From NCBI GenBank assembly GCA_903910645.1, contig CAIWAD010000124.1, positions 16,445-80,444 on the forward strand: a stretch of 64,000 bases of DNA. The letters run 5' to 3'. Made by a program: the position numbers and the translations under genes. Of the stretch, positions 19,933-54,759 are shown piece by piece; within the stretch, counting starts at the first letter, position 1; the number at the start of each line of letters is the position of its first letter. The notes under the pieces are model-generated. The model did no database searches. It worked only from the letters and a program-made list of their open reading frames with translations, and was not told the DNA's origin. The DNA comes from an uncultured bacterium (GTDB taxonomy: Bacteria; CAIWAD01).

Positions 19933-20956
19933 CGCCACCTCCCCGGCCGGAAGTTCCGCCGACAGGTAGGGCAGATAGCGATAGGCCTGCACGCGCCGGT
20001 TGTACTGATCCACGATGTAGAGGTGGTCCCCGTGGAAGCAGAGCGCGCTGGGCAGCAGGAACTGGTCGCCCGCCCTGCCCGTGCCGCCGAACCAGTACAA
20101 AAGGGCGCCGCTGCGGCTGAAGACCTGGATGCGGCTGAAGGCGGCATCGCTCACATAAAGATTGCCGTCGCCATCGAAGGCCAGTCCCTTGGGAAACATG
20201 AAACCGCCCGGCGAGTGGTCGTAGACTCCGAAGGAGAACAGGAAGTCGCCCTGGGCGTTGAAGCACTGCACGCGATGGTTCAGGGCGTCCAGCACCCACA
20301 GTTGACCGTCGGGATCGCTGGCCACCGCCACGGGATGCAGGAACTGGCCCTGCGCGCCGCCTTCTCCACCCAGGGTGCGCTGCCAGCGGCCCTGGCCGTC
20401 GAAGCTCTCCACCACATGGCGGCCCGCATCCACGATGTGCAGCAGCGAGCCATCCCAGTGCATCTGTCCCGGCCTCTTCCATCCCTTGGGCGAAGACAGT
20501 TCGCCCTTCACATTGCCGGATCCGGACTCCAACAGGAAGACCTTGCCCCGGCCCGCGTCGCTCATGGCGATGCCGGCGGGAAAGGCGGCCACGCCCGTGG
20601 GCGTGGCGAACAAGGGCGAGGCCATCACTTCGAACGGTCGGGGCGAGCAGCCCTCGGGGCTAAGTCGCAGAAGGCGGGACAAATCGCCGTCGCACACCAG
20701 CACGCGGCCATCTGCATCCACATCCACATCGGTGGGGCGTCCCACGCTGGCGGTGGCGCAGCTGCCCGTCACCAGGCGCAGGGCCTTCATGCCCAGGCCT
20801 CCGTCCAGTCGCACCTGGGAAAGGACATCCCCCTCCTGCAGGTAGAGCGTGTCCGTGCCGGCGGCCACCAGGGGTCGCGGCCCCTGATGCGTCACCGTGG
20901 CGCATCCCGCCGCCAGGAGCAGGGAAAGGAAAAGGACAGGCAGGCGTCGCCTCATG
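19927..20956 (-). CDS. NHL-repeat beta-propeller lipoprotein
   Basis: Internal start MRRRLPVLFLSLLLAAGC (lipoprotein signal plus Cys). NHL-like repeats include GQFLHPVAVASDPDGQLWVLDALNHRVQCF and FMFPKGLAFDGDGNLYVSDAAFSRIQVF. The first ~340 aa of ORF 19927..21987 were rejected as a spurious extension. Confidence 0.7.
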
Positions 20957-23165
20957 GCAGCACCCGCTTCTCGCTTGAGTGGTAATAGCGGTACTTCCAC
21001 AGGGCCTTGTCTCCATGGCAATCGGCGCAGACGGCCTCGCTTGTCTCCTGGCGCAGGAAGTCCGGCGAATGTTCGCCGCCTCCCTCGGGGTGGGCCACAT
21101 GGGGGTTGTGGCAACTGGTGCAGTCCACGCGTCCAATGGCGCCGTCCGTGCGGCCCTCGGCATCGAAGAGCGGCATGGTGCGTCCGTCGGGTCGCGTCTG
21201 GCCCGCAAGGGTCATGTACTTCTGCGGATGGCCCCACGCCTCGGGTACATGGCTGCTGGCGCCCTGCTCGCGGTGGCAGGAGAGGCAGTGCCGGGCGCCC
21301 GGACTCCAGTTCTCCGCCTTGCGCTCCAGGCTTCCATCCGGCCGCACGGCGGCCACGCTGTCCATCTGGGCATTGTCCAGGCTGCTGGCGATGATGGCCC
21401 AATCCGACACGGCGCGGTGGGTGGTGTGGCAGGCCCGGCAGGCGCTCTCGTTGGGCCTGGTCTCGCTCAAGTCGTGGGCGCTTCCCAATACACGGGTCTC
21501 GCCGGAGTGGCAGGCGGAACAGAGTTGCGCGCCGGAGTTGGCCATGCGCAGGAAGGAGCTGTTGTCGTCGCCCTTGGCGTTGGCCTGCCAGGTGGGCGGT
21601 CCGGCGGGATTCCAGTGATGTGGCTCGTGGCAGGACTCGCAGCCCACCAGCAGATCGGCCGGTTCGGGTGTGCCGTCCGCAGGTCTCCAGGTGCGCAGGT
21701 TCTCTGCGCGGTAACCCGGCAGCTTGCTGCCCTTGGGCATGGCCCTGCCCACCGGATGGCCGTGCTGGCCCAGGGTGGTGGCCCCGTGCTTGCCGGTGCC
21801 CTCGTGGCAGCTCAGGCACAGGCTGGTGAACTCGGATGCTTCCGTCCGGGCATGGCCATCGCCAAATGCCTGCTGCTTGTGCGTGTTGTGGCAGGAAGTG
21901 CATTGGCCCCGGCTGGGCTCGCTCCAGTTGAAGGAGTTGTGGTCGGAGACCAGGGTTTGGGCCTGCTCGTTGTGGCAGTTGATGCACAGTCGGCCGTTTT
22001 CGTCATCGGGCAGGCGCAGGAAGCTGCCCAGGGCATCCCCATCCTCATTGCCCGGGCCCGGCTTGTGCCCTGGCATGGCGCTCCAGCGGTGGGGGTCGTG
22101 GCAGGTGGTGCAGCTCATGCCGCCCTCACGCAGGGGAAGGCGCACATTCTGCTCCTTCACCGGACGGTCCAGGGGATGGCCGTGCCCCACCCAGCTGATG
22201 GCGCCCGCCGCGCCCTTTTCCTGGTGGCAACTAAGGCAACGGGCGTCCACGCCATCCTTCACCACATCCGCGCCACGCCCGCCGGGCAGGGGCCAGGCCC
22301 ACATGGCCGGACCATTGCCGCCATGGGTCACATGGCAGGATGCGCAGGCGTCGCTTTGCCCGGCCGTGCGCCTCGTGTTGCCAATAGGCAGATTCCCGTG
22401 TTCTTCCTTCAGGTGGTGGTCGCTTTGCAGCACGGCGAAACTGGGCTCGTGGCAGCTGCGGCACAATTGGGTGCGGTCGGCGCCATCCACCAGCTTGGCC
22501 CGCTTGTCGCTGTGCATGTTGTGGCAACTAAGGCATTCCACCGTGCCTGTGGACACATGGCGTCCGGCCAGCTCCTGTGGCAGTGCCTGCTCCAGCTTGG
22601 CATGCAGGGGATGGTCTGTGTTGCGACGGGCGTGGTCCGCGTGGCACTTCAGGCACAAGGCGGAATTGTCCGCTTCCGCGCGCAAGAAGGGCACATACTG
22701 GAACTCGCGCTCCATGCGGTTCATGTGGGGCGTGTGGCAGCTGCCGCAGTAGATGTCCCCCTTGCGATCCAGGGGAAGGCCGCTGGCGGACACCGCCGCG
22801 CCATTGCTGGGCTTGTGGAAATGCGGATCGTCCTTCTGGAAGAAGCGCCGGCTGTCCCCCACATAACCGTCGTGGCAGGACCAGCACATGTCGCGGCTGG
22901 CCACGCGGGCTTCGCGGCCGTCGATCATCACAGGATGATCCACCGGCGGCAGCAGGACGGCCATCTTCTCATAGCCTTCACCCCACTCCACATGGCAGAT
23001 CACGCACTCCTTGGAGCGGTCCATGTGCAACTGGGCGTCCGCGCGACCGGCTGGGCCCAATCCAAGGGCAAGCCACAGGCCCGCGACTCCGCAGGCCAAG
23101 GTGGCGCGAAGCAGGCGGGCTTTCAGTCTCCGGGAGTCAAGATCCATGGGCGAAAATCCATTCAT
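20952..23165 (-). CDS. Multihaem c-type cytochrome (~18 CxxCH)
   Basis: Start MNGFSPMDLDSRRLKARLLRATLACGVAGLWLALG (signal). It has 18 CxxCH motifs (CVICH ... CADCH) spread over ~730 aa. Confidence 0.85.
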   Translation of the reverse strand: MNGFSPMDLDSRRLKARLLRATLACGVAGLWLALGLGPAGRADAQLHMDRSKECVICHVEWGEGYEKMAVLLPPVDHPVMIDGREARVASRDMCWSCHDGYVGDSRRFFQKDDPHFHKPSNGAAVSASGLPLDRKGDIYCGSCHTPHMNRMEREFQYVPFLRAEADNSALCLKCHADHARRNTDHPLHAKLEQALPQELAGRHVSTGTVECLSCHNMHSDKRAKLVDGADRTQLCRSCHEPSFAVLQSDHHLKEEHGNLPIGNTRRTAGQSDACASCHVTHGGNGPAMWAWPLPGGRGADVVKDGVDARCLSCHQEKGAAGAISWVGHGHPLDRPVKEQNVRLPLREGGMSCTTCHDPHRWSAMPGHKPGPGNEDGDALGSFLRLPDDENGRLCINCHNEQAQTLVSDHNSFNWSEPSRGQCTSCHNTHKQQAFGDGHARTEASEFTSLCLSCHEGTGKHGATTLGQHGHPVGRAMPKGSKLPGYRAENLRTWRPADGTPEPADLLVGCESCHEPHHWNPAGPPTWQANAKGDDNSSFLRMANSGAQLCSACHSGETRVLGSAHDLSETRPNESACRACHTTHRAVSDWAIIASSLDNAQMDSVAAVRPDGSLERKAENWSPGARHCLSCHREQGASSHVPEAWGHPQKYMTLAGQTRPDGRTMPLFDAEGRTDGAIGRVDCTSCHNPHVAHPEGGGEHSPDFLRQETSEAVCADCHGDKALWKYRYYHSSEKRVLP

Positions 23166-23188
23166 GGGGCCCTCCGGCGCGGGCTGTG

Positions 23189-24133
23189 TCAGGGAATGTC
23201 GAAGCGGATGATGCGGCTGGCGCGGCTGTCCACCACCCACCACGAAGCTCCGCAACACACAATGGCCGTGGGACCCTGGAGTTGCCAGGGCTTGCCCTTC
23301 AGCATCAACTGGCCCTGGCTCTGGGCGTACTCGTCATAGGCGTGCACCATGCCCAGGTAGCTGTCGGTGATGAGCAGGCCCTTGCCGTTCCAGCAGGCGC
23401 AGGCGCCCTTGGGACGATAGAGACGCTCGCCATCGGTGCCAAAAGAGCCCACCATGCGGTCAAAGTTCCCCAAGCGCGTGTAGGCCTGGATGCGGCCGCC
23501 CAGCACATCAATCACCATGAAGCCGTTCATGTGGCGGGACAGGATGCCCGGAAACTTGAACTCCTCCACGCGATCGCCCGGCTTGCCGTCGGGCAGGCTC
23601 ATGCCCGCCATGCGACGCATGGGGCGGATCTCGTCGGCGCCCCGGCCAATCACTTTCAACAGGGCGCCGTCGTAGCTGATCATCAGCAGGCGATGGTTGT
23701 CGTTGTCGGAGACCACCAGCTTGTCCTCCAGCGCCAGCACATCCACCGGATCGCAATTGGCCGGAAGCTTGATGGTCTGCACGGGACGCCCGTCCAGGGT
23801 GGTGACGAAAATGGAGCCGGCATCCGGATCGCTCACATAAAGGCGGTCCTTCCAGATATCGTTGCCCACCGGGTTCACAAAACCATCGTGGCGGATTTCA
23901 CGCATCAGGGCGCCCTGGGGGCTGATGACCACCACGCGCTTGTTCAGGCCGTCCACCACATAGGCGTTGCCGCGCTCGTCGGCCGCCAGGTCCGTGGGAT
24001 AAGTGGTGCCGGCGGCCACATCCTCCAGAATGCGCACATCCACCGCGCCGGCCACGCCGGCCAGCATCAGAAGCAGGATCGGGAGGAGCAGGGCTCTCCG
24101 ATCAGTACGCGGGCGGCAGGAAGAAGACTTCAT
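23189..24133 (-). CDS. NHL-repeat beta-propeller protein (secreted)
   Basis: Signal MKSSS..RRALLLPILLLMLAGVAGA. Repeats include YPTDLAADERGNAYVVDGLNKRVVVI and DRLYVSDPDAGSIFV. Confidence 0.7.
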   Translation of the reverse strand: MKSSSCRPRTDRRALLLPILLLMLAGVAGAVDVRILEDVAAGTTYPTDLAADERGNAYVVDGLNKRVVVISPQGALMREIRHDGFVNPVGNDIWKDRLYVSDPDAGSIFVTTLDGRPVQTIKLPANCDPVDVLALEDKLVVSDNDNHRLLMISYDGALLKVIGRGADEIRPMRRMAGMSLPDGKPGDRVEEFKFPGILSRHMNGFMVIDVLGGRIQAYTRLGNFDRMVGSFGTDGERLYRPKGACACWNGKGLLITDSYLGMVHAYDEYAQSQGQLMLKGKPWQLQGPTAIVCCGASWWVVDSRASRIIRFDIP

Positions 24134-26683
24134 TGTCGGTCACACTCGCGGTTATGGCGCTGCTGCGCAGTTGGCGAATCCGCTCCTCGTCGAAGCCCAC
24201 GCCGTGGAAGTCCACCAGCCCACCCTCGGGCACATGGCATTCTCCACAGGTGGCGCCCGTGCCTTCGCCGGACTGGATGCGATCGTGGAAGCGGTCCTTG
24301 GTGTCCTTCATGCGTGCCTGGGTCATGGGCGCGGAATTCTGCCGGTACTCCTCGGCACGAGGGCTGTCCAGATCGGCATAAAGCGGCTTTCCGCCCACCT
24401 TCAAGCCCAGCAGGCTGGTGTAATTGTCCAGCCCGGTGAAGGGCGGTGTGCCGGTCAACTTATAGGGAGCCTTGGGCTCGCCCTGGGGCTGGCGGCGGAG
24501 ATCCAGCCAGCTCCACTCCGCGCCCTTGCGGTCGGCCTCCTTGGCGTGGCAGGTCTCGCAGGTCATGAAGCGGCTGTGCAGGTTCAAGTAGGCCCGCGTC
24601 TTGCGGTCGTTCTGGTGCGGCAACATGGCGTGGCAGAGCAGGCACTCGCTTTGGCGCAGGGTGGAATCCGCCGTCACCACCGGCTCGGCATCGTGGAAGC
24701 GTCTGTGGCGCCAATCCACATCCTCGTTGGCGACACGCAAGGGATAACTGGGATCCGCCAGCGCCGCCTCCTTGTCCGCCAGCGGGCGCTTGCACCACTG
24801 GGCCACCACATCGGCGGCGGCCGGAGCCTTGTCCACTCCCAGGTAGAGGCGGAAGGACCACACCATGGCGGCGCAGGTGACAATGGTGAGAAACAGAAAG
24901 GACCATCCCAGGGTGCGGGCCAGGGTGTCGCGCGTGCTGCGGCGACGCTCCCGGGCCCCGGTGACCTCGTTCACCAGGATGGGGCCGAACTTCTCCACGG
25001 CATCCGGCTCCATGAGCGCGCCGTGCTCCTCCTCCATGTCCTCTTCGCCCATTTTGCCGTCAATCCACACCTCGCTCATGGGCCAGCGGCTGGGCTTCCA
25101 GTGCACGTTCCAGAAATGCCACACCACGATGGCCGCCACGGCAAGGATGGCCTCCAGCGAATGCACCAGGCGGGCCAGGTCCACGATGAACTTGCTGCCC
25201 AGGTGCTCCATCCACAGGATGATGCCCGTTCCTGTCATCACCACGGAGCCCCAGGCGAAGGCCCAGTACTCCATTTTCTCGCCATAGTTGAAGAAGCCGA
25301 AGGCCGGGCGATCCTTCCGCAGGCCCAACATGAAGCTGATGTTGTGGCTGATGAGCTTCATGTCCGATGGGCCGGGGAGCATGGCCCACATCAGGGCCCT
25401 GCCGCGCTTGCTGAACACCGCATAGCCCAGGTGGTAGAAACTCACCAGCGTGAGCAGGATGGCCGCCACGCGATGGCTCCAGTCACGCACGGGCATGAAG
25501 TATTCCCACCGCACAAGGGTGCCGAAGCGCTCCGGCGGAATCCACAGCATGACGCCTGTCAGAGCCAGCAGGGTGAAGCTGGTGAACATGACCACATGAC
25601 TGATGCGCTCCGCTGGGCTCAGGCGGCGGAAGACACGACGCACGGCGCCTTCGGGCTTTTGGTGGTGGGCCGCTGCGTGCGCCTTTCGATGGCGACGCCA
25701 GGCGATGTAGTCCAGCAGATTGTGGCCCAGCATGCCGCCAATGGTGAGCAGGATGATCCAGATGTAAATGCGCTTCACCCACACCAGGGCCTGCACCTTG
25801 GTGCCCTGGTAAAGGTTGTGCATGCTGCCGGCGGTGGCGAAAGACACCGTGGCGCCATCGTGGCAACCGGTTGTGCTGCAGGTTTTCTGCAGGTTCGCCG
25901 GGTTGATCATGGACTTGGAATCCTGATGGCTCAGGATGTTGTGGTGGCCATGGCAGTCGGCGCACACGGGGCTGCGCTTGTCCCCGAAGTTGAAGCCGCG
26001 GCCATGGAAGGACTCCAGGAAGCTGGAGACCATGGTGCCATCGATGAGCAAGGTTTCAAGGCTGTCGGACACCAGCTCGTTGTCCGTGTGGCAGCGGATG
26101 CAGGCCTCGAAGTTCTGCTGATGCCTCCAGTACTCGTCCTCGCTGATGTGCAGGGCCAGGTGCTTGAAGTCCTCGTCCAGGGCGTTGTAGTTCTCGTGGC
26201 AGGTGAGGCACTTGGCCTTGGCGCGCTCCATGTCCTCCGGAAGCTTCTGCCAGTAGACGCTGTTGAAGTGGCAGTCCTTGCACACCGGCTTGCGGTGGTC
26301 GTAGGGGCCCTTCCCCGTCTTGCCATGCACGCTGGCCGCCAGGTCCCTGGCCATTTTCTGATGGGAGTAATCGGCGCCGGTGTAGGGATCGATTACATGG
26401 CAGGCCACGCTGCAGTCCACCTTTTTCACCGGCGCGCGGTGGGGCACCTGATCGATGTCCGTGTGGCACTGGCGGCAGGCGAAGCGGCCATGGATGCTGC
26501 TTTTATGGACGCCTTCGTCGATGGTGAAATTGCGCACGCCCGCGCTGTCGCTGACGGCCATCCAGGGCTTGCCATGGCAGAAGAGGCAATTCTCGGGATC
26601 GAAGGTGCTGTCCTGGGCCACGGCCAGTGTGGCCAGCAGCAGTCCCGCCAGGGCAAGGATCTTCCGCAGGGGATCCATCATTC
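24102..26683 (-). CDS. Fused multihaem cytochrome c / di-haem cytochrome b / cytochrome c membrane protein (CbcL-like quinol oxidoreductase candidate)
   Basis: Start MMDPLRKILALAGLLLATLAVA. The N-terminal periplasmic domain has ~8 haem motifs, including CSVACH and CSTTGCH variants. The central domain has 4-5 TM helices with conserved His: ISHVVMFTSF, WSHRVAAILLTLVSFYHLGY and VAAIVVWHFWNVH. This resembles FdnI/HydC-type cytochrome b. The C-terminal domain has CLLCH, CETCH and CGECH. Confidence 0.8.
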
Positions 26684-27481
26684 CTCCAGCATGGGGAAGT
26701 GGAAGGGTTCGTAATTCTCCACCATGCCCACGGCGGCGGAGTGCGTCAATTCGTGGATGCGCGGTTGGCTGAAGCCCAGCGCGACCCATGGGAAAGCGGC
26801 TTCCGGCGTGTGGCAGGCCAGGCAGGCGCTGGGCGTTTTGCCCACATGCTCCTCGGCGAACTCGCGGAACTGGGCCTCGTCGATCTCCAGCCCGCTCAGC
26901 GCGTCGGCGCGGAACTGCTTGTAGCGCTGGTCATCGTAGGGCGTGAACAGCAGGGTGTTGCCGCCTGCCGCCGTGAGCACAGGGACGATGCGGCTGATGA
27001 AGTTGTGCCGCCCGGACAGGACGCCATCCTTCCCCCGCTCAAGTCCATAGGGGCCCAGGGCCGTGACCGTGTTGTCCGTGTCGAAGGAGGTCCACTCCAG
27101 CGAGGTGCGCGCGCGCATGGTGTCGTCCAGATGGCAGGCCAGACAGCTCATGAAATGGCTGTGCTGGTTGTAGAAGGCACGGCGCTTGGGATCCTTGGTG
27201 TGCGGGAAAAGCGGGTGGCATGTCAGGCAGGCCTCCTGCTGGCCCAGGGGCAGCAGGCTGTGCACCTCGATGTTGTGGAAGTGCTGCTCCTGGTTGCGGT
27301 AGTCCTCGAACCAGGTCTCCAGCTGCTCCACATGGTCCGTGAAGTGGCGCCTTCCCTGCTTTTCCTCCTCGTGGGCCTTGTGGGGACGGTTGGTCATCCA
27401 CACCAGCCAGGCGGACACAGCGCTGCCGATGACCAGGGCCGTAAGGCCGTAGGCCACCCGGCTGAAGGTTCTCATGCTCAT
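26678..27481 (-). CDS. Membrane-anchored tri-haem c-type cytochrome
   Basis: N-terminal TM anchor, then CLTCH, CLACH and CLACH. The stop overlaps the start of the downstream fused c-b-c gene. Confidence 0.7.
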   Translation of the reverse strand: MSMRTFSRVAYGLTALVIGSAVSAWLVWMTNRPHKAHEEEKQGRRHFTDHVEQLETWFEDYRNQEQHFHNIEVHSLLPLGQQEACLTCHPLFPHTKDPKRRAFYNQHSHFMSCLACHLDDTMRARTSLEWTSFDTDNTVTALGPYGLERGKDGVLSGRHNFISRIVPVLTAAGGNTLLFTPYDDQRYKQFRADALSGLEIDEAQFREFAEEHVGKTPSACLACHTPEAAFPWVALGFSQPRIHELTHSAAVGMVENYEPFHFPMLEE

Positions 27482-28263
27482 GCGTCACCATCCCGGCCGG
27501 CGGCGCCGTCCTGCTTGTCGTCGTCGTCGTGGCGTCGCACACGGCCACGCTTCAACTGCTCAAGGATGTCCTCCAGCTCGCGGGGATGCTCGTGCATCAT
27601 CTCCTCTTCGCTAAGGGTGCCGCGGTACCACACCTTGTTGGCGGGCCACACGCGGGGATTGAAGTGCACGTTGTAGAAGTGCCAGATGACAATGGCCAGG
27701 AAGGCCAGCAGGGCCTCGTCACTGTGGGCCACATAGGCGATCTGGATGACCTCTGAGGGGAACCACTGGCCGCTGGCCTCCGGATACCACAGCAACAGGC
27801 CGCTGCCCGCCATGATGAACATGCCCCAGAACACCGCCCAGTAGTCGAATTTTTCGATGTAGGAGAAGCGGTGGAAGCGGGGACGCTCCTCACTCAGGAA
27901 AAGGAAGTAGCGGATGTTCGTGGCAATGTCCCGGGCATCCTGCAGGTTCGGCAGCAGATGCATGCCGGAAAGGGGCGTGCGGTTGCGCACGATGTTGAAG
28001 AACACATAGAACACATGGACGGCGAAATCGGCGATCATCACCACCGCGGCCACGCGATGAATGGTGCGCACCGTGTCGATGCCCCCGAAAAGGTTGATGG
28101 AGTGCGACCAGAAGGCGGTGTCCGGGAACTTGATGGGGAAGCCCGTCACCACCAGGACAATGAATGGCACAAACATGAAGATGTGCTGCAGGCGCTGGCT
28201 GAGCGAGAAACGCACATACTCCCGCCTTCCCCCCACCACGCGAATGCGATCACTCACTCTCAT
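27478..28263 (-). CDS. Di-haem cytochrome b membrane subunit (FdnI/HydC/PF01292-like)
   Basis: The real start is the internal ATG (MRVSDRIRVVGG). Four TM helices carry His ligands (TIHRVAAVVMIADFAVHVFY; IVIWHFYNVHF). The upstream 112 aa of ORF 27478..28599 are Ala/Arg/Pro-rich and were rejected. Confidence 0.7.
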   Translation of the reverse strand: MRVSDRIRVVGGRREYVRFSLSQRLQHIFMFVPFIVLVVTGFPIKFPDTAFWSHSINLFGGIDTVRTIHRVAAVVMIADFAVHVFYVFFNIVRNRTPLSGMHLLPNLQDARDIATNIRYFLFLSEERPRFHRFSYIEKFDYWAVFWGMFIMAGSGLLLWYPEASGQWFPSEVIQIAYVAHSDEALLAFLAIVIWHFYNVHFNPRVWPANKVWYRGTLSEEEMMHEHPRELEDILEQLKRGRVRRHDDDDKQDGAAGRDGDA

Positions 28264-29296
28264 GGCGGCCTCCTCCCGAGAAGCGCCCGTGGACCCAGCG
28301 GCCGAAGTCCAGCAGGATGTGGCTGAAGAGCAGGGCCATGGTGATGGCCGTGAGCAGGATGAAGCCCCAGGTGACCACATAGACCACCGGATTGCTCTCC
28401 ATGGTGGGCTTGCTGTGGATGGCCGAGCGCGCGAACTCAATGCTGGGGCTGATGTGGCAGCCCGTGGTGCCGCAGGTCTGGCGGATGTTCGCCGTGGACA
28501 GCGTGGAGGCCGGGTCGTCCTGGGGCAGCACAAGATGACTGGTGTGGCAATCCGCGCAGTTGGCCACGCCATCCAGGCCGCGCCGCATGGCCTTGCCATG
28601 GAAGTGGTGCTGGAAGCCTTCCACCTGCGTGCTGCTCACATTCACGCTCTCCATCAGCGTGGCGTCGCCGTGACAGCTTGAGCACAAGCGCACGATGTCC
28701 AGCGAGTTCTCCGCGCTGCGGTGGGAAGTGTGGCGGTCAATGTGCTGGATGACGCCTTCCAGGGACTTGCCGTCGTGGCAGTTGGCGCAGTGCTTGGCCT
28801 GCTCCTGCACGCGCTGGTCCGGGGCCGCCATGCGATGGCTGCCGTGGCAGTACTTGCAGCCGGGCTTGGCGGCGTTGGTTTCGGGATCGTCCTTGGGATT
28901 CTGCCCGTGCACGCTCATGGCGTGGGCTTCCACTTCGCCGCGGTGGGAGAACACCGTCAGCTCGAAGGGGCGGTTCACATGGCAGGTCTTGCCGCAGTCC
29001 ACCTTCTGCACCACCTGTGGATGCGGAAACGCATCGATGTCCGCGTGGCAGTCCCGGCAGCCGATGCCCTTGTGGGAGCTGTGCATCACGGTCTCGGCGC
29101 TCACCTCGTAGAGGCGGAAACGGCCCTTGTCGTCGTGGCGCGACAACAGGGGCAGCCCATGGCAGAGTTCGCAGTTCTCCGAATCCGCCAGACGCGGATT
29201 GGCCAGCGAAGACGCCAGCGGCAGCAAGGCGAGAAGGGCCGGGAGCAGGCCCCTGGCCAGAGAGGCCAAGGCGCCCCTACAGGTCGTGACAGGCAT
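28250..29296 (-). CDS. Multihaem c-type cytochrome (~8 haems) with C-terminal TM anchor
   Basis: Signal peptide, then CELCH, CRDCH, CGKTCH, CKYCH, CANCH, CSSCH, CADCH and CGTTGCH. The C-terminus has a hydrophobic helix (VVYVVTWGFILLTAITMALLF). Immediately upstream of the cytochrome b gene, so this looks like a split Cbc-type module. Confidence 0.8.
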   Translation of the reverse strand: MPVTTCRGALASLARGLLPALLALLPLASSLANPRLADSENCELCHGLPLLSRHDDKGRFRLYEVSAETVMHSSHKGIGCRDCHADIDAFPHPQVVQKVDCGKTCHVNRPFELTVFSHRGEVEAHAMSVHGQNPKDDPETNAAKPGCKYCHGSHRMAAPDQRVQEQAKHCANCHDGKSLEGVIQHIDRHTSHRSAENSLDIVRLCSSCHGDATLMESVNVSSTQVEGFQHHFHGKAMRRGLDGVANCADCHTSHLVLPQDDPASTLSTANIRQTCGTTGCHISPSIEFARSAIHSKPTMESNPVVYVVTWGFILLTAITMALLFSHILLDFGRWVHGRFSGGGRHESE

Positions 29297-30218
29297 AGCA
29301 GATCCGCTCTTTTGCCGCCCGCAGGAGCTTGGAGGCGGGGGCGCCTCCGCCCGAGCAGGCGGGATTTGGGCTGTGACAGGTGGCGCAGGCCACCGTTCCC
29401 CCGGGTCCCAGGGGCAGGATCACGCCGCTCTGGGCCTGGAACCGTTCCAGCGCGGCGGCGGTGTTCATCTTCAATCTGTTGTGCAGCACGGAGCGTCCCA
29501 CATGCTCCCGCTCATGCTTCACATCCTTGTGGCACTTCAGGCACAGTTCGCCCTGGGGCAGCTGAAGGCCCTTGCCGGGCTGGGCCGCATCGCCGCCCTC
29601 CGCGCTGTGGCAGTACCAGCAGGCCTTGTTGTCCTCGGACTGGCCGTGGGGATAGGTCTGCTTGTAGAGTTCGCGCGTGTGGCACTGGTAGCAGAAGTCC
29701 GTCTCCCGGGGCCATGGTCCGCCACGCAGCATGCTGCGGTTCTCCCGCGCCACGCGATAGCTGGTGGTCTCGTCGCAGTTGATGGCGTGGCAGGTCAGGC
29801 AAGTGCCACGGCCTTCCTTCAGGCGCGCATTGGCCGGACTGGGCGCCTTGGAGCTTGCCCCGGAGAAATCCGTGGGATGGATTTCACGCAAATGGGCCTG
29901 GGGGTCGTGGCATTCCACACAAGCGCCGTCCCGCCAGTTGGCCGCCGCCGGAGTCTGCCCGGGCGTGTGGCATTGGTCGCAACGGTTGGGCCGGCCGTGG
30001 GGGTTGTCCTTGCCAGGCAGAGTCAGGTGCTGCTTCTGGGCGGGCCTGGGTGCCGGGGCCGCCGCACGCGCGGGCACGGGTGGCTTGCACAAGCCACAGG
30101 ACGGTTTGGCGCAGTCATCATGGGTGGCCGGGGCAGGAGCCGCTCCCAGCTGGGCACCAAGCAGCAGCGCCAGCAAACCGACAACCCAGGAACCTGACCA
30201 CGAGCGTTGAACCATCAC
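29277..30218 (-). CDS. Periplasmic octahaem c-type cytochrome
   Basis: Start MVQRSWSGSWVVGLLALLLGAQLGA. Motifs CDQCH, CVECH, CLTCH, CYQCH, CWYCH, CLKCH, CATCH and CYACH. Confidence 0.8.
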   Translation of the reverse strand: MMVQRSWSGSWVVGLLALLLGAQLGAAPAPATHDDCAKPSCGLCKPPVPARAAAPAPRPAQKQHLTLPGKDNPHGRPNRCDQCHTPGQTPAAANWRDGACVECHDPQAHLREIHPTDFSGASSKAPSPANARLKEGRGTCLTCHAINCDETTSYRVARENRSMLRGGPWPRETDFCYQCHTRELYKQTYPHGQSEDNKACWYCHSAEGGDAAQPGKGLQLPQGELCLKCHKDVKHEREHVGRSVLHNRLKMNTAAALERFQAQSGVILPLGPGGTVACATCHSPNPACSGGGAPASKLLRAAKERICYACHDL

Positions 30219-30222
30219 GCCA

Positions 30223-31410
30223 TCACTCCAGCGGATAGGATAGGCCTTGCTCCTCCCAGCGATTGGGAAGGGGCAGGTCGTCATGGATGAGCGCATTGGC
30301 GCCGAAGCGCAGGCTGAGCAGGTCGTAGCCCAGCACATTGAGGTAGAAACCCACGAAGGCGCTGGTCTGGCCCGTCCAGCAGTAGAGGACATTGGTGTTG
30401 GCCGGATGCAGGGCGCTCAGGTCCTGATTGGTGGTCAGGCTGCCCGGGCTAAGCTGATAGGCGCCCTGGACATGGCCGTACGTGAAGTAGTCGTCCTGCA
30501 GCCAGTAGTTGTGGATGATGAAGGAGCCGGGGTTGTCCATGACCTCGTAGGCGTTCACAGCGTTGGCCGTGAAGCCCTCCGCCAACACCGCCGACACCCG
30601 CGCCTGCAGAATGGCCTGCCCCGAGGCCAGTCCCGTGGACAGCTCGGGCCAGTCGAAGGTGGGAAGGGCGGGACTGTTGCCGTAGCTCATCACCGATTCG
30701 TATGCGTTGCTGATGCCTGCATTCCAGGGCCCTGCCAGCAGGTCGTTCCACCCCGCCATGCCCCATTGCAGACTGAAGGCGTCGTGGCCCAACATGCGCA
30801 ATGCCATGGTGGCGAAGGCCGCCACCTGTCCCGTGTCACAAGCCAGCAGCACCGGCAGGCCGCCACTGTTCTGCCCTTCCACCGTGGACACCAGCGTGGT
30901 AAGGCTGGCATTGCGAGCGCCGGGAATGTGCCCTGCCAGGAAGGCCTGGCTGCTGCGGAGATCCACCACGAAGTACTGGCCCAGATTGGCGTTCACCGTG
31001 GTGGCAGGCAGGATCCAGTTGGTGGCCCAGGTGGCGAACTGGGCGTCCGTGATGGCCGCCAGGCGGTTGAATTCCCCGCGCACGGAGATGGAGGTGGAAC
31101 GGCTGGCGCTGTCCACGCCATCGCTGACCTCCACCAGGATCGTCACCTGCCCGGAAGCCGGTGCCTGCCACTGGATGTTGGCCGTGCTGCCAATGGCCAG
31201 ACCATCAACTGTCCAGGCATAGGTCAAGGCGTCGCCATCGGCGTCGCTGGCCGTGCAGGCAAGAGTGATGGTCTCGCCGGGATCGGGGGTGGGATCGCTG
31301 GCGGTGACACCGCTGATGACAGGCGGGCTGTTGCCCTCCTCAGAAGAGGAACAGCCACCCAAAATGAGGGCGGCCATCAGGCCCGTGACGAAAATGCGTG
31401 CGCGACCCAT
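30223..31410 (-). CDS. Lipoprotein with N-terminal PKD/Ig-like domain and two rhodanese-like domains
   Basis: Lipobox ILGGC. The PKD-like segment reads TASDADGDALTYAWTVDG. The rhodanese domains contain YFVVDLRS...AGHIPGA, with Cys loops LLACDTGQVAAF and LYCWTGQTSAF. Confidence 0.7.
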   Translation of the reverse strand: MGRARIFVTGLMAALILGGCSSSEEGNSPPVISGVTASDPTPDPGETITLACTASDADGDALTYAWTVDGLAIGSTANIQWQAPASGQVTILVEVSDGVDSASRSTSISVRGEFNRLAAITDAQFATWATNWILPATTVNANLGQYFVVDLRSSQAFLAGHIPGARNASLTTLVSTVEGQNSGGLPVLLACDTGQVAAFATMALRMLGHDAFSLQWGMAGWNDLLAGPWNAGISNAYESVMSYGNSPALPTFDWPELSTGLASGQAILQARVSAVLAEGFTANAVNAYEVMDNPGSFIIHNYWLQDDYFTYGHVQGAYQLSPGSLTTNQDLSALHPANTNVLYCWTGQTSAFVGFYLNVLGYDLLSLRFGANALIHDDLPLPNRWEEQGLSYPLE

Positions 31411-31471: not shown

Positions 31472-32431
31472 TTAGTTGGTTTCCAGCTCGTAGTTGAAGC
31501 CGGTGGCGGCCCAGGCGTTGGCCGGCATGGTGTCGTGGTACAGCGCGTTGGCGCCGTACTTCAGGCTAAGCACATCATAGCCCAGGGCGTTCAGGTAGAA
31601 ACCCACCAGGGCGCTGGTCTGGCCCGTGTAGCAGTAGAGCACCTGCTGGTCGGCGGGATCCAGGGCGTCCAGGTCCGTGGTGGTGGTCAGGTTGCCCGGA
31701 GTCAGCTGGTAGGCGCCGTCGATGTGGCCAACGGCGTAGTGGGCGGCGCTCCAGTAGTTGAAGATCTGGTAGTCACCCGGAGTGGCCATTACGGTGGCTG
31801 CGGTGACGATGTTGGGCGTCAGGCCTTCAGCCAGGATGGCGTTCACGCGGGCCTCCAGGATGGCCTGGCCATCGGTGAGGCCGGTGTTCAGTGCAGGGAA
31901 CTCGAAGGTGCCCAGGGCGGGGCTGGCGCTGGTGACCATGTTGCCCACATAGGCGTTGCTGATGCCCGTGGCCCAGCTGGTGTTCAAGGCGTCATTCCAA
32001 CCGCCCATGCCCCACTTCACGGAGAAGGCGTCCGTCCAGCCCAGCATGCGCAGAGCCATGGTGGCGAAGGCCGAAGTCTGGCCCGTGTAGCACACCACCG
32101 CCACCGGCAGGTCGCTGGTGTTGTTGGTGGCGATGTTGTCGGCCATGGTGGTCAGCGTGGCGTTGTGGGCGCCGGGGATGTGGCCGGCAGCGTAGTCCGT
32201 GGCGCTGCGCAGGTCCACCACATAAAGGTTGGCCAGGTTGGTGTGGACATAGTCCGCGCCCTGCACCCAGCCCGTGGTCCAGCCGGCGAAGCCCGTGTCC
32301 GTGAGCTCGCTCATGAGGGCGAACTCGTCCACCGGTGTGGTATTGTCGTCGTCGTCATCCTCGGAGCAGCCGGTGAAGACGGAAAGGGTGAGCGCCACGG
32401 ACAAAGCCAAGGCGAGCTTCTGGAACTTCAT
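31472..32431 (-). CDS. Lipoprotein with two rhodanese-like domains (paralog of 30223..31410)
   Basis: MKFQKLALALSVALTLSVFTGC lipoprotein signal. LYVVDLRSATDYAAGHIPGA. Cys loops VVCYTGQTSAF and LYCYTGQTSAL. Alignable to the neighbouring gene over the full rhodanese region. Confidence 0.7.
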   Translation of the reverse strand: MKFQKLALALSVALTLSVFTGCSEDDDDDNTTPVDEFALMSELTDTGFAGWTTGWVQGADYVHTNLANLYVVDLRSATDYAAGHIPGAHNATLTTMADNIATNNTSDLPVAVVCYTGQTSAFATMALRMLGWTDAFSVKWGMGGWNDALNTSWATGISNAYVGNMVTSASPALGTFEFPALNTGLTDGQAILEARVNAILAEGLTPNIVTAATVMATPGDYQIFNYWSAAHYAVGHIDGAYQLTPGNLTTTTDLDALDPADQQVLYCYTGQTSALVGFYLNALGYDVLSLKYGANALYHDTMPANAWAATGFNYELETN

Positions 32432-32531
32432 GCGAACTCCTGTGTTTTGGAAAGTTGGGTCCATTGACCCATTGGTGACGCGCCCGTGGCCGCCGACCCT
32501 CCCAAGCCCGCGGCCCGACCCGTTTCAACCA

Positions 32532-34094
32532 TCAATGTCTGTTCCAATACCTCGTGATGCTGTCGTCCACTGCAGTGGCCCGGTTGGCCCGCACATACTC
32601 GTCGGGGTCCTCCAGACCCGTGACGGACGACTTCAAACTGTCCAGATGGCTCAGCCACAGGAAGCGCCTGGCGTTGGCCTCCTCGTGCGGGCCCTGGACA
32701 TGGCAGCTCATCCAGCAGTCTCCCATGCTGTAGGCAGGGTTGGACAGCGCCACGGCCGTCTGGGGCGTGAAGCGCTGGATGTTGTGGGGACTGGAGTACT
32801 CCCAGGTGGGGAAGGAGGACCAGTTCTGCAGACTGGGCCAGCCCCACTCGCGAAAGCCATCCTTGATCACCGGGATGTGGCGCACGGTGACCCACTCCTC
32901 ATGCTCCACCGGATGGGTGGAAATTGCGCCTGTGTTGCGACCAATGCGGAAGTCAGTGTACTCAGAATACCCCTCGGGGTCTCCACTGTTCCACACGCCG
33001 CCGGAGTGGCAATTCAGGCAGTTGGTGTAGGGCTGGCTGTGGCACACGGTGCAGGACAGGCCCTCTTCCATGGAGCCTTCCCCCGGCCAGTGATAGGCGT
33101 GGAAAAGGTTGTCCTCCGCCGCCAGGCTGTGGCAGTTGGTGCAGCGCGGCATGCCTTCCACTTCATAACGGCTGGTGTAGTCCGTGCGGCCGTCCCCGTG
33201 CAGATTCTCCTGGTGGCAGAAGAAACAGTCGAAGCCCAGCTCATTGTGCACATCGGGGCGATTGCCCTCGTGGTGGCCGTTGTAGTCGTTGCCCACGCGG
33301 CTGCCATGGCAGGCGGTGCAGTTGTTTTCAATGTCAGGCGTGCGCTTGAAGCGATGGCTGTCCAGCAGGCCGCCCTTCACACTGGTGGGACGGGACACAT
33401 GGCATTGGCCGCAGGTGGCGTGGCAGCTGGAACATTCCCGCGCATGGCCTTCCTTGAGCAGCTCGGGACAATCCTCCCAGCTTTCGTAGCCGGCGCGCAG
33501 GGCGATCTTCGCCTTTTCGCCCCACAGCTGGCTGTGCATGGACGTGGCATGCAGGTCCACGATCTGGGCATGGCAACCCGTGCCGTTGCAATTCAGCTCC
33601 GGCTGGGTGCTGGGATCCCGCGTGATGCCCTTCACCGTGGGCTTTTCACGAATGACGCGCCCGTTGCTGGTGTAGCGCACCTCGAACTGGTGGGCCGCCG
33701 CCATGGCCACCCACAAATCATCCCGCGAGCCACTGGCCGCCACCACCTGATCCACGCCGCCGTGGCAGGTGACACATCCCACAGCCGCATGGTTGGGGTC
33801 AACTTCGGCGTAGCTGTCGGCGTCGATGAACACTTTTGCATAAGGCTCCAACGGAGCCACGGCGCCGCCTCAGCCACCACCCGCGCTTTCACTGGCCGCC
33901 TCTTCCACCGCCAACAGACGCAGATAGTCCCGGTTGGTGTGGCAGCTCTCGCAGCTAAGGGTCACCGCGTCGCCCGACGAGGCGGGATCCGCGGTGATGG
34001 GGTCGATGCGTTCGCACCCCTGCTGCAAGGCGGCAAAGAGGCTCCCCCACAACAGAAGGCGCCACCATGCCTGTGAAAATGCGCTTGTCGTCAT
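32532..34094 (-). CDS. Multihaem c-type cytochrome (~11 haem motifs) interrupted by a single in-frame TGA (33870-33872)
   Basis: ORFs 33870..34094 and 32532..33860 are in the same frame, separated by one TGA. The first carries signal peptide MTTSAFSQAWWRLLLWGSLFAALQQGC and CESCH. The second carries 10 haem motifs with no signal. The TGA sits in the codon run GGT GGT TGA GGC GGC. Confidence 0.7.
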
Positions 34095-38207: not shown

Positions 38208-41200
38208 CTACATGTTGCGCCGATACTGCCCGCCCACCTCGAAGAGCGCCCGCGTGATCTGCCCCAGGCTGGCCACCCGCACAGTCTCCATCAGTTCCGC
38301 GAAAAGGTTGCCCCCCTCCGCCGCCACGCATCGCAAGCGCGCCAGCGCCTCCGGTGTCTGCGCGGCATGCCGCGCCTGGAAGTCGCGCAGGCGGGTCACC
38401 TGCAGCTGCTTCTCCTCGTCCGTGGCCCGGGCCAGCTCCAGGTGTTCGGGCACATCCGATCCCCCCGGACGCAGGAAGCTGTTCACGCCCATGATGGGCA
38501 GCTCGCCGGACTGCTTCTTCAGCTCGTAGAGCATGGACTCTTCCTGGATGCGGCCGCGCTGGTACTGCGTCTCCATGGCGCCCAGCACGCCGCCGCGCTC
38601 GCTCAGGCGCACGAACTCCGCCAGCACCGCCTCCTCCACCAGCTCCGTCAACTCGTCCATGATGAACGAGCCCTGCAGGGGGTTCTCATTCTTCGTCACG
38701 CCGAATTCGTGGCTCACGATGAGCTGGATGGCCAGGGCACGGCGCACGCTCTCTTCCGTGGGCGTGGTCACCGCTTCGTCGTAGGCGTTGGTGTGCAGGC
38801 TGTTGCAGTTGTCGTAGATGGCCAGCAGGGCCTGCAGTGTGGTGCGGATGTCGTTGAAGTCCATCTCCTGGGCGTGCAGGCTGCGACCGCTGGTCTGGAT
38901 GTGGTACTTCAGCTTCTGGCTGCGCTCGTCCCCATGGTACAGGTCGCGCATGGCCACCGCCCAGATGCGTCGGGCCACGCGCCCGATGACGCTGTACTCC
39001 GGATCCAGCCCATTGCTGAAGAAGAAGGAGAGGTTGGGCGCGAAGTCGTCAATGCGCATGCCCCGGCTCAGGTAGTACTCCACATAAGTGAAGCCGTTGG
39101 CCAGGGTGAAGGCCAGCTGCGAGATGGGGTTGGCCCCCGCCTCGGCGATGTGGTAGCCGCTGATGGACACGCTGTAGTAGTTGCGCACGCGGTTGGAAAT
39201 GAACCACTCCTGGATGTCGCCCATGAGCTTCAGCGCGAACTCCGTGGAGAAGATGCAGGTGTTCTGCGCCTGGTCCTCCTTCAGGATGTCCGCCTGCACC
39301 GTGCCGCGCACGGCGGAGAGCGTGGTCGCGCGCAGCTCCCCCGCCTCCACGGCACTGGGATCGCGGCCCTCCCGCTGGCGGAACGCATCCAGGGCGAAGT
39401 CCACCGCCGTGTTCAGGTACATGGCCAGAATCATGGGGGCCGGCCCGTTGATGGTCATGCTCACGCTGGTGGTAGGGCTGCTCAGATCAAAGCCGTCATA
39501 GAGCCGCTTCATGTCGTCCAGGGTGCAGATGCTCACGCCGCTCTCGCCCACCTTTCCGAAGATGTCCGGGCGCTCCTCCGGGTCCTCGCCGTAGAGGGTC
39601 ACGCTGTCGAAAGCGGTGGAGAGCCGTTTGGCCGCGCTGTCCCTGGACAGGTAGTGGAAGCGGCGGTTGGTGCGCTCCGGCGGTCCCTCGCCGGCGAACT
39701 GCCGCGTGGGGTCCTCGCCCTGGCGCTTGAAGGGGAAGACCCCGGCCGTGTAGGGGAAGAATCCCGGCAGGTTCTCCAGCGCCACGAAGCGGTAGAGATC
39801 CCCCACATCCCCAAAGCGCGGCAGAGCCACCCGTGGAATGGCCGACCCGGACAGGCTGGTGCGCGTCAGCTCCTGACGATGCACCTGGCCGCGCACCGTG
39901 TATTCGTAGAACTCGCCCGTGTAACAGGCCGCCGTGGCCTGATAGGCCTCCAGCGCGGACAGGGCCCCCGCATGCAGGGCCAGGGCCAACTCCCGCCGCT
40001 TCGCCTCCAGGAGATCCGCCGCCTCGCACGGGCCCAATTCAGACACCGCGGTGGCCAGGTGGGCGCAACGGCTCAGGCGGTCGGCATCCTGGCGCACGCG
40101 GGTCTTGTAGTCTCGCACGGTGCGTGAGATTTCCGCCAGGTAACCCACGCGGTCTTCCGGTATCAACTGCCGGCGCAGCACGCGGTTGTCCGCGGCCAGC
40201 GGCGTGGTGGCGAAACCGCCGCCGAAGCGCGCCTCCAGCGCCTGCATGAAGCGGTCGAAGAACCAGTTGGTACCGTTGCAGTCGAAGCGGCTGGCCACCG
40301 TGCCGAACACGGGCAGCTCCTCGTCGGGCACATCCCAGGAGATGCCGCGGGCCCGGCGCACTTGCCGCCGCACATCGCGCAGGGCGTCCTCGCTGCCGCG
40401 CTTCTCGTACTTGTTGAGCACCACCATGTCGGCATAGTCCAGCATGTCGATCTTCTCGAGTTGGCTGGCCGCGCCATACTCGGCGGTCATGGCGTAGATG
40501 CTGAAGTCCGCCAGGTCCACCACCGCGCTGCTGCCCTGACCGATGCCGCTGGTCTCCAGCAGGATGAGGTCGAAGCCCGCCACCTTCAGCAGGGCCACGC
40601 TGTCCGCCGTGGCGGCGCTGAGCTCGCTGCCGCTCTGCCGGGTGGCCAGACTGCGCAGGAAGACCTTCTCGCCGCTCAGGCTGTTCACGCGGATGCGGTC
40701 ACCCAACAGGGCGCCGCCGCTCTTGCGCTTGGTGGGATCCACACTCACCACCGCCGCGCTCTTGCCCGGATGCACCGCCTGGAAGCGGCGCAGGATCTCA
40801 TCGGTCAGGCTACTCTTGCCGGCGCCCCCCGTCCCCGTGATGCCCACCACCGGGGCTCCGCCGGCGCGGCCCATTTCCAGCAACTCGTGCAGCGCCGCTG
40901 GGGCCTGGGCTCCGGCGGCCTTGCGCTCGCACCAGGTAAGGGCGCGACCCAGCGCCATTTCTTGGCGGGCCAGCACACCGGCCTTCAAATCGTCCAGGGG
41001 AAGCTGGGAAGGATCGAAGTCGCTGGCGTTCAAAGCCAGCTGAATCATGCCCTCCAGGCCCAGCTCCGCACCGTCCTGGGGGCTGAAGATGCGATCGATG
41101 CCCGCGGCGTGCAGCTCCTCGATCTCATCCCGCACAATCACGCCGCCGCCGCCGCCAAAGATCTTCACATGGCCCGCGCCTCGCTCAGCCAACAGCTCCT

Positions 41201-41444
41201 TCATGTACTTGAAGAAGCGCACATGGCCGCCCTGGTAGCTGGAGACGGCCACGGCCTGGGCGTCCTCCTGCACGGCGGCGCGCACAATGTCCAGCACGCT
41301 GCGATTGTGGCCCAGGTGGATCACCTCCGCCCCGGCGGCCTGGAAGACCCGACGCATGATGTTGATGGCGGCGTCGTGGCCGTCGTAGAGGCTGGCGGCG
41401 GTGACCACGCGGACGGGATGTTGCAGGCGGTGTTCCTGGGCCAT
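38208..41444 (-). CDS. icmF: Fused isobutyryl-CoA mutase IcmF (B12-binding domain + MeaB-like G-protein + mutase catalytic domain)
   Basis: N-terminus VRVVTAASLYDGHDAAINIM (B12-binding DxHxxG region). GITGTGGAGKSSL P-loop and NKYEKRG (GTPase NKxD-like motif). C-terminal mutase domain (...SGYHIAEAGANPISQLAFTLANG...). ~1078 aa. Confidence 0.9.
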   Translation of the reverse strand: MAQEHRLQHPVRVVTAASLYDGHDAAINIMRRVFQAAGAEVIHLGHNRSVLDIVRAAVQEDAQAVAVSSYQGGHVRFFKYMKELLAERGAGHVKIFGGGGGVIVRDEIEELHAAGIDRIFSPQDGAELGLEGMIQLALNASDFDPSQLPLDDLKAGVLARQEMALGRALTWCERKAAGAQAPAALHELLEMGRAGGAPVVGITGTGGAGKSSLTDEILRRFQAVHPGKSAAVVSVDPTKRKSGGALLGDRIRVNSLSGEKVFLRSLATRQSGSELSAATADSVALLKVAGFDLILLETSGIGQGSSAVVDLADFSIYAMTAEYGAASQLEKIDMLDYADMVVLNKYEKRGSEDALRDVRRQVRRARGISWDVPDEELPVFGTVASRFDCNGTNWFFDRFMQALEARFGGGFATTPLAADNRVLRRQLIPEDRVGYLAEISRTVRDYKTRVRQDADRLSRCAHLATAVSELGPCEAADLLEAKRRELALALHAGALSALEAYQATAACYTGEFYEYTVRGQVHRQELTRTSLSGSAIPRVALPRFGDVGDLYRFVALENLPGFFPYTAGVFPFKRQGEDPTRQFAGEGPPERTNRRFHYLSRDSAAKRLSTAFDSVTLYGEDPEERPDIFGKVGESGVSICTLDDMKRLYDGFDLSSPTTSVSMTINGPAPMILAMYLNTAVDFALDAFRQREGRDPSAVEAGELRATTLSAVRGTVQADILKEDQAQNTCIFSTEFALKLMGDIQEWFISNRVRNYYSVSISGYHIAEAGANPISQLAFTLANGFTYVEYYLSRGMRIDDFAPNLSFFFSNGLDPEYSVIGRVARRIWAVAMRDLYHGDERSQKLKYHIQTSGRSLHAQEMDFNDIRTTLQALLAIYDNCNSLHTNAYDEAVTTPTEESVRRALAIQLIVSHEFGVTKNENPLQGSFIMDELTELVEEAVLAEFVRLSERGGVLGAMETQYQRGRIQEESMLYELKKQSGELPIMGVNSFLRPGGSDVPEHLELARATDEEKQLQVTRLRDFQARHAAQTPEALARLRCVAAEGGNLFAELMETVRVASLGQITRALFEVGGQYRRNM

Positions 41445-41571
41445 GGATGATCTCACGCTTGGTTGAACGACCGGTGAATCTACCACTGCCACCGGCAAGT
41501 GGACCCACAAGTGGAAGGGGCCACCGCGGCGGCCCCTTCCAAAGATGCAGGCATCGTCAACGCCGCTCGAG

Positions 41572-54644: not shown

Positions 54645-54759
54645 GGGGCCTCCGGATAGTGCGCATGGAAGATACAGGGGCTTGGGACATGCCGCGAGCC
54701 GCATGGGGAAATGGCCGCCCCATTGGCCCTACATTGGCGCAGCCACCAAGAGGTACCCC

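Follow-up and report, generated by a model that had tools for sequence, protein, structure and literature searches.

What becomes of a ribosome that meets a single in-frame TGA inside an otherwise open gene for a multihaem cytochrome c? The question is raised by a locus on the minus strand of a 64-kb stretch of contig CAIWAD010000124.1 (assembly GCA_903910645.1; the whole stretch is hereafter the window), from an uncultured bacterium of the GTDB lineage CAIWAD01. Here an ATG at 34094 opens a 74-codon open reading frame (ORF) at 34094-33873, MTTSAFSQAWWRLLLWGSLFAALQQGC...CESCH...SESAGGG, which ends at TGA 33872-33870; past this codon the same frame stays open, with no further stop, until a terminator TGA at 32534-32532. 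An earlier account made from the letters alone (the sequence-only reading) had proposed that the two ORFs share one frame and are parted only by the TGA, and the reading frame on the minus strand confirms it. We conclude that the TGA is very probably a selenocysteine (Sec) codon, followed by a bona fide bacterial selenocysteine insertion sequence (bSECIS), a conclusion drawn from comparative sequence analysis. The features of the gene are as follows.

32532..34094, minus strand: predicted complete selenoprotein gene for a lipoprotein-type undecahaem cytochrome c of about 520 residues, one frame apart from the single TGA; the Cys-type homologues P0017 and P0112 are uninterrupted here.
33873..34094, minus strand: N-terminal segment with a signal peptide and lipobox-like LQQGC, then the haem-1 motif CESCH (C48/C51/H52) and a linker whose last residues are GGG; every Sec-type locus has an equivalent segment (lipobox Cys, CxxCH and G-x-G) ahead of its TGA.
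33870..33872, minus strand: in-frame UGA, probably read as Sec, residue 75, in an invariant G-U-G-G; TGA stands at the aligned codon in most of the sampled GTDB loci, as detailed below, and in the window.
33844..33858, minus strand: bSECIS-like hairpin with 5' arm GGCUCC (33858-33853), loop GUU (33852-33850) and 3' arm GGAGCC (33849-33844), in the same register in most Sec sequences.
32535..33869, minus strand: cytochrome body with 10 haem motifs, including a conserved Cx4CH (C169/C174/H175) and Cx3CH (C460/C464/H465); databases hold it as a separate 442-residue hypothetical protein (P0001 and others).

The codons round the site are GCG GGT GGT GGC TGA GGC GGC GCC GTG GCT CCG TTG GAG CCT. The sequence-only reading had left one GGC out of this string, although its protein version, AGGG*GGA, was correct. 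The read-through product counts 520 residues and 11 haem motifs (nine CxxCH, CNGTGCH of the Cx4CH type and CWMSCH of the Cx3CH type), one of them upstream of the TGA and 10 downstream. Only the N-terminal piece carries an export signal, the lipobox-like one, and the 10-haem body has no signal peptide; the earlier claim that both ORFs must form one exported protein is thus upheld.

The distribution of the split among relatives provides the first line of evidence. With the fused protein as query, 1,275 relatives were recovered, most of which (99% to about 40% identity) are about 440 residues long and cover the last 85% of the query only. Their cut point falls at the same place as in the window, and full-length relatives are few. 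The same split recurs in independent assemblies, namely P0001 (99% identical, from a JGI contig), P0002-P0006 (74-78% identical; NCBI and Logan) and dozens of metagenome-assembled genomes (MAGs). In a genomic sample of 80 loci from GTDB species representatives, the frame was read upstream of each body match. A single in-frame TGA occupies the same codon in 67 of the 79 evaluable loci, a Cys codon (TGC/TGT) replaces it in six and neither is found in the remaining six. The 67 loci share the motif G-[G/E/D/P]-G-U-G-G, each with a lipoprotein signal and a CxxCH upstream, and are labelled as Marinimicrobia/Neomarinimicrobiota, Calditrichota, KSB1, Desulfobacterales, Fibrobacteraceae (Fibrobacterota), Myxococcales (Myxococcota-labelled), Fidelibacterota and Delongbacteria-like MAGs. 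Protein identity among the TGA-bearing loci goes down to about 35%, with both sides of the TGA strongly conserved.

The residue that replaces the TGA is equally telling. The Cys codon is found at the TGA column in L022, L064, L073, L074, L076 and L077, and two full-length database proteins, P0017 ('PGCGGEVVPL') and P0112 ('HGCGG'), have Cys exactly at this column in uninterrupted ORFs. The sequence-only reading had pointed out that TGA is one change away from GGA (Gly) and had proposed a comparison of orthologues for a GGA or GGC codon. This hint led in the wrong direction, as Gly is never seen at the column. Where the TGA is replaced we find Cys and never Gly, the classic Sec/Cys signature. 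The Cys forms of Ignavibacteria (L074, L076 and L077, the last a MAG assigned to Melioribacter roseus) read H/G-G-C-G-G, have no hairpin and still have a rhodanese gene adjacent; here a cultured species may supply a tractable Cys-type orthologue.

The second line of evidence is the hairpin. The sequence-only reading had noticed a hairpin 12 nt past the UGA, which proves to be well placed: GGCUCC-GUU-GGAGCC (33858-33844) follows a spacer of 11 nt, starts at the 12th nucleotide, and now appears to be the SECIS element. The bSECIS model calls for a small apical loop, 16-37 nt from the UGA, with G in its first two positions (PMC13188914). The geometry found here fits this model, with a small apical loop that opens with G then U and begins 17 nt beyond the UGA. 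Of the 68 Sec sequences, 59 form the stem at nt 15-20/24-29 (U of UGA being 1), in 27 stem variants, and the loop of these hairpins is GUU in 54 and GGU in five. Another eight of the 68 have an alternative hairpin shifted by about 3 nt, CCCGAGCU-GGA-AGCUUGGG (register B), a different SECIS solution for one and the same Sec codon. The register-B clade (L039, L045, L048, L062, L063, L072, L078 and L080) consists of Fibrobacteraceae-labelled and other MAGs, with the hairpin at nt 16-34 after the UGA.

Covariation was scored on 64 distinct sequences, the shifted register-B ones included. None of the six stem pairs lacks compensatory double changes, and pairing is kept in 85% of cells. Covariation scored 0.461, a value that 0 of 500 shuffles reached (0.133+-0.017); sliding the partner by 1-3 nt gave 0.154 or less. 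In a Desulfobacterales clade (L057, L059, L061, L068 and L071) the stem arms are swapped, to GGAGCC-GUU-GGCUCC, and the encoded peptide changes from VAPLEP to VEPLAP; the mRNA structure thus appears to dictate the protein sequence here. The Glu wobble base follows its pairing partner: the codon facing base 17 is GAA if this base is U (10/10) and GAG if it is C (31/31, register A). All 41 register-A cases thus match, where GAA makes up 65% of the background Glu usage in these genes. Finally, the hairpin is missing in the deep Cys lineages (L074, L076, L077) and still present in the recently converted L022 and L073.

Compared with the canonical bacterial SECIS of the Escherichia coli fdhF type (PMC13188914), the element is alike in being a stem-loop within the coding sequence directly 3' of the UGA, with an 11-nt spacer and a loop that opens with G then U at 17 nt. 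It differs in its very short stem (6-8 bp), a loop of 3-5 nt without an evident bulged U and a minority clade that uses a hairpin shifted by about 3 nt.

The sequence-only reading had listed three options, programmed recoding, a nonsense mutation in a pseudogene and a sequencing error, and had chosen none. The conserved TGA and the hairpin favour the first, whereas the TGA shared by 67 loci from many phyla refutes the other two. Two further explanations keep the UGA as a genuine signal. One is that it is decoded as a standard amino acid, through code 25 (UGA=Gly), code 4 (UGA=Trp) or SECIS-independent near-cognate read-through (Trp/Cys). The position of the UGA within a glycine run gives it a superficially Gly-like look, but homologues show Cys at the column and never Gly or Trp, and a code reassignment needs no conserved, co-varying hairpin at SECIS distance. 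Moreover, the carrier lineages use the standard code, and the terminator of the gene itself is TGA, so that TGA is normally a stop here and an alternative genetic code is excluded. We therefore regard decoding as a standard amino acid as very unlikely.

In the other scenario, two genuine genes are arranged as a stop-restart pair, with translation ending at the UGA and reinitiating at a GUG or UUG a few codons on, the GAGG of UGA-GGN serving as Shine-Dalgarno. The invariance of UGAGG, the GTG found 9 nt downstream in 44 of 68 sequences and the start chosen by gene callers would all agree with it. Attachment of c-type haem needs export, as is well established for the Ccm and System II pathways, and a separately translated body would offer 10 c-type haem motifs without any signal peptide. 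Of the 68 sequences, 23 have something other than a start codon at +4, the Cys-type orthologues are single continuous ORFs and the GUG is accounted for by stem position 15 of the hairpin. A stop-restart arrangement is consequently hard to credit.

A recent nonsense mutation, leaving a pseudogene that makes only a 74-residue fragment, would agree with a TGA that breaks an otherwise intact ORF and with the treatment of the halves as separate hypothetical proteins by gene callers and databases, yet it is extremely unlikely because the same TGA, common to 67 loci from many phyla at identities down to about 35%, cannot be a shared recent lesion, and because both flanks are strongly conserved with a co-varying hairpin next to the codon. 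A sequencing or assembly error that hides a true GGA or TGC, for which the error-prone context of a G-rich run might speak, has practically no chance given the repetition of the split in independent assemblies from different projects.

If the TGA encodes Sec, as we hold, what kind of protein is made? Relatives are found in at least 580 GTDB species genomes and form more than 1,200 clusters at 90% identity, and a profile search returned 148 clusters (50% identity) at E<=1e-30 and 739 at E<=1e-3. In NCBI, JGI and ENA they are annotated as an ORF of 59-74 residues plus a "hypothetical" cytochrome of about 440 residues. JGI labels six of them (P0013, P0059, P0063, P0067, P0094 and P0103) as 'thiosulfate/3-mercaptopyruvate sulfurtransferase' despite only cytochrome Pfam matches, a label probably carried over from the neighbouring rhodanese. 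Pfam cytochrome c3/c7 matches to the cytochrome lie below the gathering cut-offs, no NCBIfam model was matched by either half, nor by the fused protein at E<=10, and a PDB sequence search of the cytochrome gave no match at E<=10. An AlphaFold model of the Cys-type homologue P0017 (mean predicted local distance difference test score, pLDDT, 73; predicted template-modelling score, pTM, 0.69) had 0 Foldseek matches against the PDB.

Residue conservation, scored on 73 full-length Sec/Cys-type sequences, suggests where the Sec might act. All 11 haem motifs and their histidines are invariant, as are C48, C51, H52, L58 and G74. Beyond the 11 haem-motif histidines only 10 further His are conserved, and there is no conserved Met or Lys. 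Apart from the His residues, the one invariant position that could provide a ligand is Sec/Cys75, with glycines on its flanks; no other Cys is conserved outside the haem motifs, and within the N-terminal module residue 75 is the sole candidate distal ligand for haem 1. The non-canonical motifs CNGTGCH (approximately 33346-33366) and CWMSCH (approximately 32700-32717) are invariant across the family as well, and one or the other could mark a special haem.

The gene neighbourhood gives clues on function. Directly downstream of the cytochrome, and in the same orientation, the window holds two exported rhodaneses followed by a series of electron-transfer genes:

31472..32464, minus strand: tandem-domain rhodanese lipoprotein, directly downstream of the cytochrome (Pfam Rhodanese E=1e-22, two stretches).
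30223..31410, minus strand: second exported rhodanese with an N-terminal PKD/Ig-like domain (Pfam Rhodanese E=4e-18, weak PKD/Big_9 matches).
20952..30392, minus strand: co-directional electron-transfer cluster, from Pfam matches; the order is the same in the Delongbacteria relative L081 and partly so in L083. Its members, also assigned by Pfam, are the next five entries.
30392-29277, 29296-28250 and 27481-26678, minus strand: multihaem cytochromes.
28599-27478, minus strand: cytochrome b561-type membrane protein.
26789-24102, minus strand: multihaem-cytochrome/cytochrome-b fusion of 895 residues.
24133-23189, minus strand: NHL-repeat protein.
23258-20952, minus strand: MtrC-like multihaem cytochrome of 768 residues.
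18137-20482, minus strand: 781-residue protein with no family match, possibly an outer-membrane barrel.
16488-18143, minus strand: DmsE-like decahaem cytochrome.

Taken together, the minus-strand cluster at 16488-30392 looks like a conduit that carries electrons from quinol to the outer surface. Farther away, an IcmF-type fusion of 1,100 residues (B12-binding domain, MeaB-type GTPase and methylmalonyl-CoA-mutase-like domain) at 38208-41510 on the minus strand also neighbours the cytochrome locus in L081. An ordinary housekeeping context is given by a complete recD-recB-recC operon (45947-54704, minus strand) and by two transporters, the potassium transporter Kup (13729-15846) and one of the SulP family (54637-56493). 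A scan of the window for other TGA-split genes, based on GC content at third codon positions, had no discrimination in a genome of 66% GC.

A rhodanese adjoins the cytochrome in 72 of the 77 loci with enough sequence to judge; tblastn alone gave 63 of 77, an underestimate that was raised to the final count by Pfam on L059 and by jackhmmer. Five loci have no rhodanese: L046, and every evaluable locus in which Sec/Cys has been lost, four in number (L021, L033, L035 and L041). The hypergeometric chance of this joint loss of rhodanese and Sec/Cys is about 4e-6, uncorrected for phylogeny. The matched relatives L041 (GEGEIRGG, no rhodanese) and L037 (GEGUGG, with rhodanese) illustrate the pattern. 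In Desulfobacula-like genomes the module consists of the Sec-cytochrome and a single-domain rhodanese only.

The nearest precedent is MccSep (ExtKL, GSU2937-2936, NF040886) of Geobacter sulfurreducens, a multihaem selenoenzyme and polysulfide reductase. It carries five haems, its catalytic haem has His/Cys ligation, and its Sec325 sits in the D-G-U-P loop of a C-terminal Ig-like domain (PMC13510729). Besides the Sec-cytochrome ExtKL, the Geobacter extHIJKL cluster encodes ExtH, a rhodanese lipoprotein (PMC6148476). Our locus resembles it in several respects: both encode periplasmic multihaem cytochromes c with a single Sec, predicted in our case, on a Gly-containing loop; in both, annotation breaks the gene into two ORFs at the UGA, with a SECIS-like hairpin directly after it; and both have Cys-type homologues nested among the Sec-type ones and a rhodanese-family lipoprotein in the cluster. 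In contrast, no sequence similarity was detected (no match to NF040886 at E<=10, and no PDB sequence or fold match); here there are 11 haems and not five, Sec75 lies in an N-terminal G-x-G-U-G-G loop and not in a D-G-U-P loop at position 325, no extra Cys is conserved for a His/Cys haem and a lipoprotein signal is present. The hosts differ too, being mainly the FCB (Fibrobacteres-Chlorobi-Bacteroidetes) group, Calditrichota and KSB1 here but Desulfuromonadia and Nitrospirota for MccSep/ExtKL. Membership in the MccSep/ExtKL family was accordingly rejected, with no hidden Markov model match and a different haem count and Sec position.

Other known systems offer partial parallels. A 2026 review of selenoproteomes lists three Sec-containing cytochrome families: ExtKL (NF040886), the GSU2204 family CXXCH protein (NF041027) and OTR (TIGR04315) (PMC13188914). 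The last two resemble the present family as Sec-containing proteins with CxxCH motifs; the OTR-family octahaem cytochrome and the GSU2204 family were nonetheless both rejected as its home, neither model being matched and the architectures being different. TsdA, SoxAX and DsrJ are enzymes of sulfur metabolism with a His/Cys-ligated haem (PMC13510729). They share with our family the c-type cytochrome scaffold and the theme of sulfur redox carried out by a chalcogen side chain on the distal side of a haem, with one of the 11 haems here lacking a conserved distal His; unlike them, the putative ligand here is Sec and not Cys, there is no homology and ligation is suggested by residue counting only. 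In Wolinella succinogenes, a periplasmic rhodanese-type polysulfide-sulfur transferase, Sud, feeds the polysulfide reductase Psr, a molybdopterin enzyme. The likeness lies in an exported rhodanese that works with a respiratory sulfur reductase, with a presumed hand-over of sulfane sulfur; Psr is neither a cytochrome nor a selenoprotein, and the parallel is functional only.

How might the protein be made and work? We envisage that the hairpin 11 nt past the UGA, a SECIS within the coding sequence, would recruit SelB with Sec-tRNA(Sec), whereupon the ribosome would insert Sec and go on. The outcome would be one exported lipoprotein of about 520 residues with 11 c-type haems and with Sec75 in the glycine-rich loop. 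There Sec75 would be the reactive chalcogen at, or ligating, one haem without a conserved distal His. Sec75 would receive sulfane sulfur (polysulfide or persulfide, possibly selenite) from the co-encoded periplasmic rhodanese, and the Se-S adduct would be reduced by electrons that arrive through the haem chain from the neighbouring quinol-linked cytochrome b and multihaem modules. Because of the rhodanese linkage, the haem/His count and the MccSep precedent, we tentatively propose a haem-selenium sulfane-sulfur or polysulfide reductase, analogous but unrelated to Geobacter MccSep, and give this function a little under an even chance. As an alternative, the enzyme may run in the reverse direction, in sulfur oxidation.

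A bolder extension would make Sec75 the distal ligand of the single His-lacking haem, or place it directly over that haem. Together with its obligatory rhodanese, the protein would then be a second, independently evolved haem-selenium enzyme for polysulfide or sulfane-sulfur respiration. It would occur widely among the uncultured bacteria of anoxic marine and sediment habitats, in Marinimicrobia, Calditrichota, KSB1 and lineages related to them, and would have been systematically concealed by its erroneous annotation as a pair of hypothetical ORFs. We consider this extension doubtful as a whole.

In an alternative scenario the protein is a selenoprotein whose Sec is not catalytic for sulfur; as an axial ligand it might, for instance, tune a haem potential in extracellular electron transfer to metals, the rhodanese link being incidental. 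The MtrC-like and DmsE-like cytochromes and the cytochrome b modules of the window cluster are typical of extracellular electron transfer, and the haem/His count suggests a ligand role. However, the rhodanese is also adjacent in the two-gene Desulfobacterales modules without a large cytochrome cluster, it has been lost along with Sec/Cys in four of four cases, and the only characterised Sec-containing multihaem cytochrome is a polysulfide reductase (PMC13510729). A non-catalytic Sec is thus unlikely.

Several observations weigh against a Sec-dependent, haem-linked enzyme and must be set beside the evidence above. No selA, selB, selD or tRNA-Sec was found in the 64 kb of the window or in the flanks of 60-85 homologous loci (about 1.3 Mb), a span too small to be informative; the search comprised a tRNA-Sec scan of the window and 60 loci, tblastn with an E. 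coli SelD sequence, and NCBIfam on 20 long window ORFs. Rfam, run on the whole window at gathering thresholds and permissively round the TGA, returned no SECIS family and only a noise match to mir-1224. The window hairpin alone is energetically unexceptional (minimum free energy z = -0.09 for the UGA plus 45 nt); it is its conservation across the 67 of 79 loci and its covariation, rather than window energetics, that make it more than chance. Six homologues have neither Sec nor Cys at the site. As for the site itself, the P0017 model is of low confidence round the Sec loop (pLDDT about 48-61), and the placement of Sec beside a haem comes solely from the counting of conserved His.

The recoding by UGA and SECIS is textbook biology; the novelty lies in the family, with its architecture and its possible Sec-haem site. 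The Sec-containing undecahaem cytochromes appear to form a broad family, mis-annotated and uncatalogued as selenoproteins. The family is not among the cytochrome entries of the 2026 selenoproteome review (PMC13188914), and a literature search found no undecahaem selenoprotein and no Marinimicrobia multihaem/rhodanese cluster. Hundreds of apparently mis-annotated genes are thereby flagged, and the arm swap between VAPLEP and VEPLAP shows how the structure of an mRNA can shape the protein sequence that it encodes. If Sec75 does ligate a haem, it would be the first natural His/Sec-ligated haem c. MccSep, the sole Sec-dependent multihaem enzyme so far characterised, is essential for elemental-sulfur respiration; were there a second, unrelated Sec-cytochrome tied to a rhodanese, sulfur chemistry by haem and selenium would seem to have arisen more than once, and sulfur cycling by Marinimicrobia and other abundant, uncultured lineages of the sea would gain a concrete candidate enzyme.

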